This document shows, piece after piece, positions 15,669-36,260 of a stretch of DNA of 64,000 nucleotides. The number at the start of each line of letters is the position of its first letter. Position 1 is the stretch's first letter. Below the pieces are notes generated by a model. It did no database searches. It was given only the letters and a program-made list of their open reading frames with translations, and had not been told where the DNA came from. Position numbers and translations under genes: made by a program. Location of the stretch: the NCBI RefSeq assembly GCF_056712565.1, contig NZ_CM160072.1. One strand, 5' to 3'.

Positions 15669-15686
15669 AGCGCCTTCTCAATCACT

Positions 15687-15913
15687 TCAGGATACCACTG
15701 GCGCAATTTGTAACTGCGCCGACTCATGTCGTGCTACTTCATGTTCTTCAAGGGTAAATACCGCCACACGCGACGAAAGATGGTCGGCCTGATTCAGTCG
15801 TTGCAAATCGTCGCGAAATGCCCAAAAGACATGCCGTTACTGCCAATCTGCAAGATCCCGCAGAGAATCAAAATTAAAAACAGCGTGGTCGAAATTCGAA
15901 TACGATTAAACAT
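15687..15913 (-). pseudogene. tap: Remnant of methyl-accepting chemotaxis protein IV (tap): N-terminal and C-terminal codons only
   Basis: Minus-strand ATG at 15913 encodes MFNRIRISTTLFLILILCGILQIGSNGMSF and stops after 37 codons; another frame reads FWAFRDDLQRLNQADHLSSRVAVFTLEEHEVARHESAQLQIAPVVS* ending 18 bp before cheR. Only 227 bp lie between tar and cheR where a full tap is ~1.6 kb. Confidence 0.8.
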
Positions 15914-15958
15914 CAACGCTCCCCATCAGGCGGCAATGACCGCTTTAGTAAATACTCG

Positions 15959-21184: not shown

Positions 21185-22068
21185 GCTTCCTCGGTTGTCG
21201 TCTGTTGTTGCGGATTTTTCACCGCACGCACATGCTCTTCCAGCTCAATAAACGACGGACGTTCGCTGGAATAGAGCGTTTTGCGACCAAACTCAACGGC
21301 GATAGGCGGTGCGTAACCGTTCAGATTAGAAAGCAGAGTGACTTTGACGCACTGCATCATTTTGCTGGTTTCGGCGCTTTTCTGACGTAAAACACTCGCT
21401 AATGGGGAAATAAATCCGTAAGCCAATAAAATACCGAGGAAAGTCCCCACCATCGCATGAGCGATAAGCGCCCCCAGCTCGGCGGCAGGACGATCGGCTG
21501 AACCTAACGCGTGAACGACCCCCATTACAGCCGCAACAATACCAAACGCCGGAAGTGAGTCCCCGACCAGCGCCAGACTGTTCGCCGGGACTTCTGCCTC
21601 GCTTTCGTGCGTCTCAATCTCTTCATCCATCAGAGCTTCGATTTCGAAGGTGTTCATGTGACCGCTGATAATCAGGCGCAGATAATCGACGATAAATTCA
21701 AGCATGACGCTATCCGCAAGGATGCGTGGGTAGCTGGCGAAGATCTCGCTCTCACGGGGATTTTCAATATCGCGTTCCAGCGAAAACATCCCCATCTGCC
21801 GCGATTTCGCCATCAACCGATAAAGCAGAGCCAGCAGATCCATATACATTGCTTTGGTGTATTTGGAGCGACGAAACAGCAACGGCAGCGCCTTCAGCGT
21901 GCCTTTAATCGCTTTGCCATTATTGCCGACGATAAACGACCCAATCCCTGCACCGGCAATAATCACCAGTTCAGCGGGTTGATAGAGTGCTCCAAGGCTT
22001 CCACCGGTCATCAAATAACCGCCGAAAACTGTACCGAGAACAACCAGGTAACCTAATAAGATAAGCAC
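21181..22068 (-). CDS. motA: Flagellar motor stator protein MotA
   Basis: 295 aa, four-TM proton channel; 4-bp overlap with motB. Confidence 0.95.
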
Positions 22069-22194
22069 GACATCATCCTTCCACTGTTGACCATGACAGG
22101 ATGTTCAGTCGTCAGGCGTTAACACGCGATAGGGGCAAAAGAAAGCAGCGGTACATCGTTACCGCTGCTGGAATGTTTCGCCACACCGTATCAG

Positions 22195-22773
22195 TTAAAC
22201 AGCCTGTACTCTCTGTTCATCCAGCAGTTGTGGGATAATATCGGCAGGATTCTGGGAAAGTTTACGTCTTTTTACTGCCCGGGATGGCGGCTGACATAAG
22301 CTGCAGGCAAAGCTGCCAACAGGCTGGTGAGCATGGGTAATAAAATTGCCGCCGCAGCAGTTGCAGCTGGAAAGTTGCAGTAATCCACTTTCAACAAACC
22401 GCACCAATGTCCAGGCACGGGTTAATGCCAGCAGCGGTCCTTCTTCTGCTTGCGGGCACTGTTCAAGGTATAAACGGTAGGCTTTGATCACCGCATCGAC
22501 GCCATTACACAAGCCAGTTTTCAGTAAAAACTGCCATGCATTACAGAACATCGAAGCATGAACGTTTTGTTCCCAGGTCATAAACCAGTCGGTTGAAAAT
22601 GGCAGCATGCCTTTCGGCGGTGGGCTTCCGCGCAGTTCTTTATAGAGTTTTATCAGACGTCCGCGACTTAACTGTGTTTCGCTTTCCAGCATCTGCAAAC
22701 GAGCGCCCAGGGTGATCAATTCCATTGCCAGCTGAATATCCCGCGCTTCCTGAACAATGCTTTTTTCACTCAT
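22195..22773 (-). CDS. flhC: Flagellar master regulator subunit FlhC
   Basis: 192 aa with C-terminal Zn-binding cysteines (CSLCQP...CNCCGG). Confidence 0.95.
22239..22265 (-). promoter_or_regulatory. Sigma-28 promoter for motA, located inside the 3' end of flhC
   Basis: Minus strand reads TAAACTTT-N11-GCCGATAT (one mismatch in each element to the sigma-28 consensus); lies within the flhC coding sequence. Confidence 0.6.
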
Positions 22774-22775
22774 GA

Positions 22776-23126
22776 TCAGGCCCTTTTCTTGCGCAGCGCT
22801 TCTTCAGGCTGATTAACATCATTCAGCAAGCGTGTTGAGAGCATGATGCCGGTATGAATTTGCTGGAGATCGTCAACGCGGGAATCTTGCGTCAACTGAG
22901 TAATCGTCTGGTGGCTGTCAAAACGGAAGTGACAAACCAGTTGATTGGTTTCTGCCAGCTTAACCATTTGCGGAAGAGTCAGTGCCGCTAACGTTGTCGC
23001 CATTTCTTCATTTATGCCGAGACGAAACATAGCGGACGCTTTGTCCTGAACAATCAGACGCTGTGCAAGTAGTAAATATGACAAGTTGATGTCATAAATG
23101 TGTTTCAGCAACTCGGAGGTATGCAT
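22776..23126 (-). CDS. flhD: Flagellar master regulator subunit FlhD
   Basis: ORF 22776..23135; start set at [25 protein letters not shown] (116 aa). Confidence 0.9.
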
Positions 23127-23905
23127 TATTCCCACCCAGAATAACCAACTTTATTTTTATGCGGTCTCACCGCACCCCGTGATGTCGCCGGGAAGCCCCG
23201 GTAAAAAATAATTAGCATTAGAATAGTTGCGATAAGCTGCAATAAGCAGACCCACCTTTTTGGTTTAATAAGTCCTTACAAATAGAAGGGGGTCTTTACA
23301 CTTATCTAAGATTTTTCCTAAATCGACGCAACTGTACTCGTCACTACACGCACATACAACGGAGGGGGGCTGCGATTTTCAATAATGTGTGATGCAGATC
23401 ACACAAAACGCTCAATTACTTAACATAAATGTATAAGTCATACTTTTGTTTTGGGTGTATTTCAATCTGTTAAAAAATTTTTCGCTACACTGGCAAGCAA
23501 AAATGAAACAGGAATAATCGAAATGGGATGTTGCGCACAGTTAAAATAACTCACCGTAAATAATCATCTGCTATAAATAATCGCTTTAATGCAATACCAG
23601 ATAAGCCATTTTTAAACAAACACTTACCGCACAACAAACTAATTAACTACAAAGAAAGGCAACAATCAACCCAATGTTAATAAAATGTTTTACATATATT
23701 AACCACTTGTTCAATATGGGAAATCAGTACATTATTTTCTTATAAATACAGTTGAAATCATATGATAACCAAGAGCAATTGATTAATTGTATTTACTAAT
23801 GACCAGACTAATATTTACCTGTTTAACTGAGTTGGGATTGCGTCGTTTCTCCATTAGGAGTAAAGCTTTAATGTCACCTGAAGTTCACAGAATAAGGAAC
23901 AGGTT
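23127..23905. promoter_or_regulatory. flhDC class I promoter / long 5' UTR and divergent uspC promoter region
   Basis: 779-bp AT-rich non-coding interval between divergent flhD and uspC; no ORF of note on either strand. Confidence 0.6.
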
Positions 23906-24334
23906 ATGAGCTATAGCAATATTCTTGTCGCCGTTGCGGTTACACCGGAAAGTCAGCAACTGCTGGCAAAAGCGGTATCTATCGCCAGGCCAGTAAAGGG
24001 ACACATCAGTTTAATTACTCTCGCTTCCGACCCGGAAATGTACAATCAATTAGCTGCGCCGATGCTTGAAGATTTACGCAATGTGATGCAGGAAGAAACG
24101 CAAAGCTTTCTTGATAAGTTAATTCAGGATGCGGGGTATCCCGTTGACAAGACGTTTATTGCCTACGGTGAGTTAAGCGAACATATTCTGGAAGTTTGTC
24201 GCAAACATCATTTCGATTTGGTGATTTGCGGTAATCACAATCACAGTTTCTTTTCGCGAGCATCCTGCTCGGCGAAAAGAGTGATTACCTCAAGTGAGGT
24301 CGATGTGCTGTTAGTTCCACTTACGGGAGATTAA
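23906..24334 (+). CDS. uspC: Universal stress protein C
   Basis: 142-aa UspA-family ORF; conserved position between flhD and otsA. Confidence 0.85.
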   Translation: MSYSNILVAVAVTPESQQLLAKAVSIARPVKGHISLITLASDPEMYNQLAAPMLEDLRNVMQEETQSFLDKLIQDAGYPVDKTFIAYGELSEHILEVCRKHHFDLVICGNHNHSFFSRASCSAKRVITSSEVDVLLVPLTGD

Positions 24335-24340
24335 CCGCAC

Positions 24341-27693
<3,353 letters not shown>

Positions 27694-36056: not shown

Positions 36057-36130
36057 TGGAGGCGCGTTCCGGAGTCGAACCGGACTAGACGGATTTGCAA
36101 TCCGCTACATAACCGCTTTGTTAACGCGCC
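36057..36130 (-). tRNA. cysT: tRNA-Cys (anticodon GCA)
   Basis: Reverse complement reads GGCGCGTTAACAAAGCGGTTATGTAGCGGATTGCAAATCCGTCTAGTCCGGTTCGACTCCGGAACGCGCCTCCA. Confidence 0.9.
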
Positions 36131-36184
36131 AAATTCTTCAGGCCTTTCAGCCATACATCCGCTTGACGCCGATGTCTTTTAAAC

Positions 36185-36260
<76 letters not shown>

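Follow-up and report, generated by a model that had tools for sequence, protein, structure and literature searches.

Does the flhDC operon in the stretch of DNA analysed here (64,000 nucleotides, called the window below) stand under its native control, or has an insertion sequence (IS) come to lie upstream of it? IS insertions upstream of flhD give rise to hypermotile K-12 laboratory variants; the initial annotation of this DNA had pointed to this, and the literature bears it out (PMC5100188, PMC5493358, PMC11237407). It had further stated that the 779-bp AT-rich interval between flhD and uspC is uninterrupted, with no transposase fragment, terminal inverted repeat or target duplication, so that flhDC should be under native control. 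The genes and the interval concerned are the following.

22195-22773, minus strand: flhC, 192 amino acids, intact (open reading frame and UTI89 annotation)
22776-23126, minus strand: flhD, 116 amino acids from an ATG at 23126, intact (open reading frame; WP_001295647.1 in UTI89)
23127-23905, between divergent genes: flhD-uspC intergenic region, 779 bp, 35% G+C, uninterrupted
23906-24334, plus strand: uspC, 142 amino acids, the divergent neighbour (open reading frame and UTI89 annotation)

The start codon of flhD occupies 23126-23124 on the minus strand and the ATG of uspC begins at 23906, leaving exactly 779 bp between them, and the RefSeq annotation of UTI89 agrees exactly with the boundaries of flhC, flhD and uspC. 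Along the window the gene order is motB, motA, flhC and flhD on the minus strand, uspC on the plus strand, and then otsA and otsB, again on the minus strand. The G+C content of the interval is 35.2%, compared with 50.0% for the whole window, and it is lowest, at 26-31%, between 23500 and 23800. Downstream of the control region, the flhD and flhC reading frames were both found to be intact. Their products, FlhD and FlhC, match the MG1655 (K-12) counterparts at 100% identity, and UspC shows 4 amino-acid differences from that of MG1655.

For the search for IS elements, we used a library of IS1, IS2, IS3, IS5, IS30, IS150, IS186 and IS911 fragments, all taken from K-12 MG1655 and not including IS4. 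When the interval was compared with these eight K-12 IS types by blastn, only chance matches of 10-14 nt were obtained (E >= 1.4), and the entire 64-kb window gave nothing at E <= 1e-3. This negative result is meaningful because the same blast, applied to two intervals as positive controls, recovered IS1H in that of MG1655 and IS5 in that of NEB10-beta. Ungapped comparison with the IS termini (20 terminal bases each) gave at best 11-14 matches out of 20 in the interval, within the range of shuffled sequences; the alignment to IS1 and IS5 terminal repeats that the initial annotation had proposed as a check thus yielded matches at chance level. The longest open reading frame lying wholly or partly in the interval has 40 amino acids, and none of the ten short open reading frames present there gave a transposase match in Pfam. 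As for exact repeats within the interval, the longest were of 9 nt (direct) and 8 nt (inverted), at or below the expectation from dinucleotide-preserving shuffles.

Some repeats were considered as possible traces of an insertion and rejected. A pair of 13-nt direct repeats (23137-23149 and 23888-23900, 11 of 13 positions identical) could be imagined as a target duplication around a 738-bp insert. The DNA enclosed shows no IS similarity and is collinear with that of all E. coli, and the spacing of 751 bp does not fit IS1 (777 bp). Twelve inverted repeat pairs (I1-I12), viewed as IS ends, were put down to chance in AT-rich DNA by the shuffle test.

Altogether, what would mark an IS-activated, hypermotile flhDC allele was absent from the interval, namely extra DNA of about 0.77-1.4 kb (its length being 779 bp), similarity to an IS or a transposase, and terminal inverted repeats with a target-site duplication. 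There is no insertion in the flhD-uspC interval, and nothing that we found contradicts this.

We then compared the interval with that of other E. coli strains. Over its first 50 kb, the window departs from UTI89 by 6 mismatches and 1 indel (99.986% identity), which places it on an E. coli chromosome of phylogroup B2 that resembles that of UTI89. The 779-bp interval itself is 100% identical, end to end, to those of UTI89 (NC_007946.1, 2002732-2003510), S88, APEC O1, IHE3034, NU14 and the type strain ATCC 11775. All 779 bp and the flanking genes are thus alike in UTI89 and the other ST95-like B2 strains, and the 6 bases and 1 indel that separate the window from UTI89 lie elsewhere in the 50 kb. 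The flhDC promoter region of UTI89 has been PCR-sequenced and reported to be without insertions (bioRxiv 10.1101/840991). As a minor observation, the sole indel relative to UTI89 is found, with two nearby mismatches, at 36147-36155, in the spacer between tRNA-Cys (36057-36130) and tRNA-Gly (36185-36260).

In MG1655, by contrast, the flhD-uspC interval measures 1555 bp, which is the sum of 779 bp, IS1H (768 bp, annotated inside it) and an 8-bp target duplication. Once IS1H and one copy of the duplication were taken out, the two intervals aligned over 779 and 779 bp with zero gaps, 39 substitutions and 95.0% identity. The comparison with reference flhDC promoters, the other check that had been proposed, therefore gave a gapless alignment to MG1655 freed of its IS and identity to UTI89. 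It is by this gapless alignment and identical length that IS types absent from K-12 are excluded, that is, only indirectly. Length and order are likewise those of the IS-free K-12 region (BW25113, TG1 and poorly motile MG1655 stocks), and the interval was collinear with IS-free E. coli references along the full distance from flhD to the divergent uspC. Differences from IS-free K-12 amount to the same 39 substitutions: 1 in the core of the CRP site (T in the window, C in K-12), 5 in the flhDC leader, 1 in the presumed PapX site and 20 clustered at 23712-23828. This last patch of 117 bp, which lies some 80-190 bp upstream of the ATG of uspC, is hypervariable, with a local identity of about 83% as against about 97% in the remainder of the interval.

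The regulatory landmarks of the interval were placed by transfer from K-12 work, from which the flhDC start site would map to position 23324. Three observations agree on this position. The annotation of AsflhD in MG1655 ends at 1978395, which corresponds to 23324; if +1 is 23324, the published IS5 target TTAA (-99 to -96) falls exactly on 23420-23423; and the centre of the CRP core lies at -71.5 from 23324, the IS5 position in NEB10-beta also being consistent. Soutourina et al. (1999) reportedly placed the CRP site of flhDC at -71.5 and found a leader of 198 nt. Both a CRP site at about -71.5 and a 198-nt leader are recovered in the window, as would befit a native class I region, and they are consistent with the IS5 and IS1 landmarks. 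The elements so placed are listed below.

23105-23324, plus strand: equivalent of the K-12 antisense RNA AsflhD, transferred from MG1655 asflhD (1978176-1978395) via the gapless alignment
23127-23324, minus strand: putative flhDC 5' untranslated leader, 198 nt, with five substitutions relative to K-12 (23166, 23251, 23271, 23288 and 23289)
23331-23336, minus strand: TACAGT, probable -10 hexamer for the class I promoter of flhDC; it lies 7-12 nt upstream of the start as mapped and is the same in K-12
23388-23403, with its centre 71.5 bp upstream of the start: core of the CRP site, TGTGA-TGCAGA-TCACA, from the sequence and the K-12 comparison
23420-23423, at -99 to -96: TTAA, IS5 insertion hot spot, single copy and unoccupied (PMC5100188)
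23424-23431, at -107 to -100: CATAAATG, which IS1H has duplicated as its target in MG1655; in the interval it occurs once and is unoccupied

The segment from +35 to -63, which would hold the core promoter and the beginning of the leader, is identical to K-12. A scan with consensus promoters and terminators returned two promoter-like sites on the plus strand, below the shuffle mean, and did not call the flhDC promoter itself. An Rfam scan of 21500-25000 at E <= 1 gave no match, AsflhD and MotR not being recoverable in this way.

Both IS targets thus stand next to each other in the window, and both are unoccupied, as in IS-free K-12, which has the same two sequences. The hot spot of IS5 has been published as TTAA at -99 to -96 (PMC5100188), and the IS1 of MG1655 has been reported 106 bp upstream of the start site (bioRxiv 10.1101/840991), in agreement with our placement of its duplication at -107 to -100. 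The sequenced MG1655 stock (CGSC 7740) has the same underlying intergenic sequence as the window, and differs in carrying the 768-bp IS1 and the 8-bp duplication of CATAAATG at the equivalent of 23424-23431. In the same manner, the IS5-activated alleles (RP437, MC1000, BW25113 derivatives and NEB10-beta) share the underlying sequence and the TTAA target with the window. In NEB10-beta, a 1195-bp IS5 with its 4-bp duplication sits exactly at TTAA (1978 bp = 779 + 1195 + 4), where the window has a single unoccupied TTAA. In K-12, an IS inserted anywhere between about -96 and -476 relieves repression (PMC5100188), and in the B2 strain EC958 transposon insertions in the flhD-uspC intergenic region also lead to hypermotility (PMC5425062).

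To see how frequent the intact interval is, we surveyed 5426 complete E. coli genomes. At least 80% of the interval was found in one place in 5271 of them, a count that joins pieces up to 889 bp apart and can therefore include insertions of the size of IS1. Of 60 genomes picked at regular steps along the match ranking, 58 had the interval as a single piece of 776-781 bp. A 60-mer covering the hot spot (23395-23454) was contiguous in 5095 of the 5426 genomes, and a neighbouring promoter-proximal 60-mer in 5358. From these two counts we estimate that roughly 5-6% of the complete genomes are interrupted or deleted near the hot spot. The IS1 junction of MG1655 type was present in at most 181 of the 5426. 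The survey thereby puts figures on the rarity of the famous K-12 IS alleles. The intact interval is the default state, and to find it here is ordinary and already on record for the identical sequence of UTI89.

Both interrupted examples that we inspected (n = 2), NEB10-beta and CV601gfp, are K-12 laboratory strains. CV601gfp (NZ_CP043213.1, a K-12 derivative) bears an IS5-associated deletion which removes flhD and the start of flhC, and NEB10-beta has a frameshifted flhC in addition to the IS5 at TTAA; the two show decay of the flhDC locus in laboratory strains.

Upstream of the IS targets, one more element was noted.

23531-23559: imperfect palindrome at the reported position of the PapX/FocX repressor site, candidate, with one difference from K-12 at 23542 (T in place of C)

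The sequence at 23531-23559 may be the 29-mer site of PapX; a full-text literature search for the 29-mer gave no match. In uropathogenic strains, the PapX/FocX site is described as a 29-bp palindrome whose centre lies 220 bp upstream of the start (PMC6246914), that is, at about position 23544 of the window.

Taken together, we hold it to be about 97% probable that this is the class I regulatory region of flhDC in its ordinary form, free of insertions, on a UTI89-like E. coli chromosome of phylogroup B2. Promoter position, factor binding and expression level are carried over in this reading from work on K-12 and CFT073. One sigma-70 promoter would drive the operon leftwards on the minus strand, with the start at 23324 and a leader of 198 nt, and this transcription would require cAMP-CRP bound at 23388-23403, its site being centred on -71.5. 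The long AT-rich upstream stretch that reaches to uspC would serve repressors and nucleoid proteins as a platform. The factors listed for it are H-NS, LrhA, OmpR, RcsAB, IHF, Fur, MatA and YjjQ (PMC5493358), together with PapX/FocX in uropathogens (PMC6246914). In K-12 laboratory strains, an IS1, IS5 or IS3 inserted upstream would relieve this repression and render the cells hypermotile. Because nothing is inserted in the interval, the operon would still receive the inputs in cis that belong to its lineage. The interval contains, all of them unbroken, the CRP core, the targets of IS5 and of IS1 and the position of the PapX site. The native control expected by the initial annotation is thus a supported and reasonable view of the cis-acting DNA, given also the identity of the segment from +35 to -63 and of FlhD and FlhC to K-12; the lack of an IS does not by itself reveal at what strength the operon is expressed. 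The trans-acting regulators, among them lrhA, ompR, rcsB, hns, crp and papX, are encoded outside the window.

Native here means the allele of the B2 lineage, 39 positions apart from K-12, one of them in the CRP site. With 1 of these substitutions in the CRP core, 5 within the leader and 20 clustered at 23712-23828, the quantitative side of flhDC control might not match the textbook picture from K-12. UTI89 displays fast flagella-dependent surface motility without an insertion, and glucose does not inhibit its synthesis of flagella, for which cAMP is nevertheless needed (bioRxiv 10.1101/840991). The same preprint describes two further motile clinical strains free of an IS, PNK_004 and PNK_006. 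It follows from UTI89 that the lack of an IS does not imply poor motility, and that what holds for K-12 cannot be carried over unchanged.

The difference in the CRP core was followed in other genomes. The window has T at 23388, giving the consensus left half-site TGTGA, where K-12 has C (CGTGA), and this is the sole difference in the 16-bp core. A 32-mer with T was found in 4469 of the 5426 complete E. coli genomes (about 82%), and the K-12 32-mer with C in 413 (about 8%), most of these being laboratory derivatives of K-12 and a few being wild strains. In a scan of species-representative genomes with a 20-mer of the CRP site, only Enterobacter and Kosakonia matched and no Escherichia record did, though the 20-mer sits within the 32-mer of the 4469 E. 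coli genomes. The sequence TGTGATGCAGATCACA occurs in the Enterobacter genome, where flhD and uspC are arranged in the same way with 799 bp between them, and in the Kosakonia genome. In Enterobacter sp. CC120223-11 (locus L011, 2763-4305), the CRP core is situated upstream of flhD, whose protein shows 89.5% identity, and uspC is 799 bp away; conservation of the long spacer as well as of the CRP core thus reaches beyond Escherichia. At the Kosakonia cowanii locus (L010), no match to FlhD or UspC was obtained. Because Enterobacter and Kosakonia also carry T, the T at 23388 is probably ancestral, and the K-12 CRP site is a minority variant, probably a derived one.

Could the interval nevertheless harbour a degraded or unfamiliar mobile element, such as an IS foreign to K-12, a MITE or a solo IS end, which our K-12 library would miss and which would have taken flhDC out of its ancestral control? 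The limits of the eight-type library, the length and AT-richness of the interval, which are marked for an E. coli intergenic region, and the weak 13-nt repeat close to both of its ends speak for such an element. We nonetheless regard it as extremely improbable. The interval has the very length of the K-12 interval without its IS and aligns to it without gaps, 58 of the 60 genomes sampled across the species have 776-781 bp, its repeats do not exceed those of shuffled DNA, and what lies between the 13-nt pair neither resembles IS1 nor has its spacing. Moreover, with length and collinearity constant across the species and the arrangement shared by Enterobacter, any such element would predate the species and would itself be the native state.

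Another explanation accepts that the region is IS-free and places the difference in the strength of control: TGTGA being nearer to the consensus, CRP would activate flhDC at lower cAMP in strains with T, which would be motile without any IS. That the base is the only one to differ in the CRP core, that C is largely confined to K-12 laboratory derivatives among the genomes surveyed, and that the two other genera have T as well would agree with this, as would the fast, glucose-insensitive yet cAMP-requiring motility of UTI89, whose interval is identical. Yet what ties the base at 23388 to CRP affinity or expression is a comparison of sequences, 38 other substitutions and strain-specific regulators could equally account for differences between strains, and in CRP logos the initial T of TGTGA counts among the half-site positions that matter less. 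For UTI89, the authors of the preprint proposed altered cAMP synthesis instead (bioRxiv 10.1101/840991). We therefore hold this explanation to be unlikely, though far less so than a hidden element, and an effect of the 23388 base on CRP affinity or flhDC expression to be a modest lead. Slightly more doubtful still is the idea that the K-12 flhDC promoter, on which the textbook model is built, bears a derived and weakened half-site, CGTGA. If the base does matter, it could account for the poor and glucose-sensitive motility of IS-free K-12, in which IS insertions are so readily selected, and equally for the ability of IS-free uropathogens with T to swim and swarm despite glucose while still requiring cAMP. 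In any case, the K-12 reference promoter departs from the species majority at one CRP base, which should be kept in mind when K-12 motility regulation is transferred to pathogens.

Under the preferred reading, an ordinary insertion-free B2 region, the result serves as a quality note on the strain: it is not a hypermotile IS variant at flhDC, and its motility phenotypes can be read against a natural B2 regulatory allele.

Finally, a chemotaxis locus elsewhere in the window drew our attention. The spacing between cheR and tar is only 290 bp (15669-15958), and the UTI89 annotation places there a frameshifted pseudogene fragment of 152 bp, described as a Tar ligand binding domain, at 15762-15913. 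In the K-12 gene order, this gap is presumably the place of the chemoreceptor gene tap. From this order and the UTI89 annotation, tap appears to be reduced to a remnant in this lineage.
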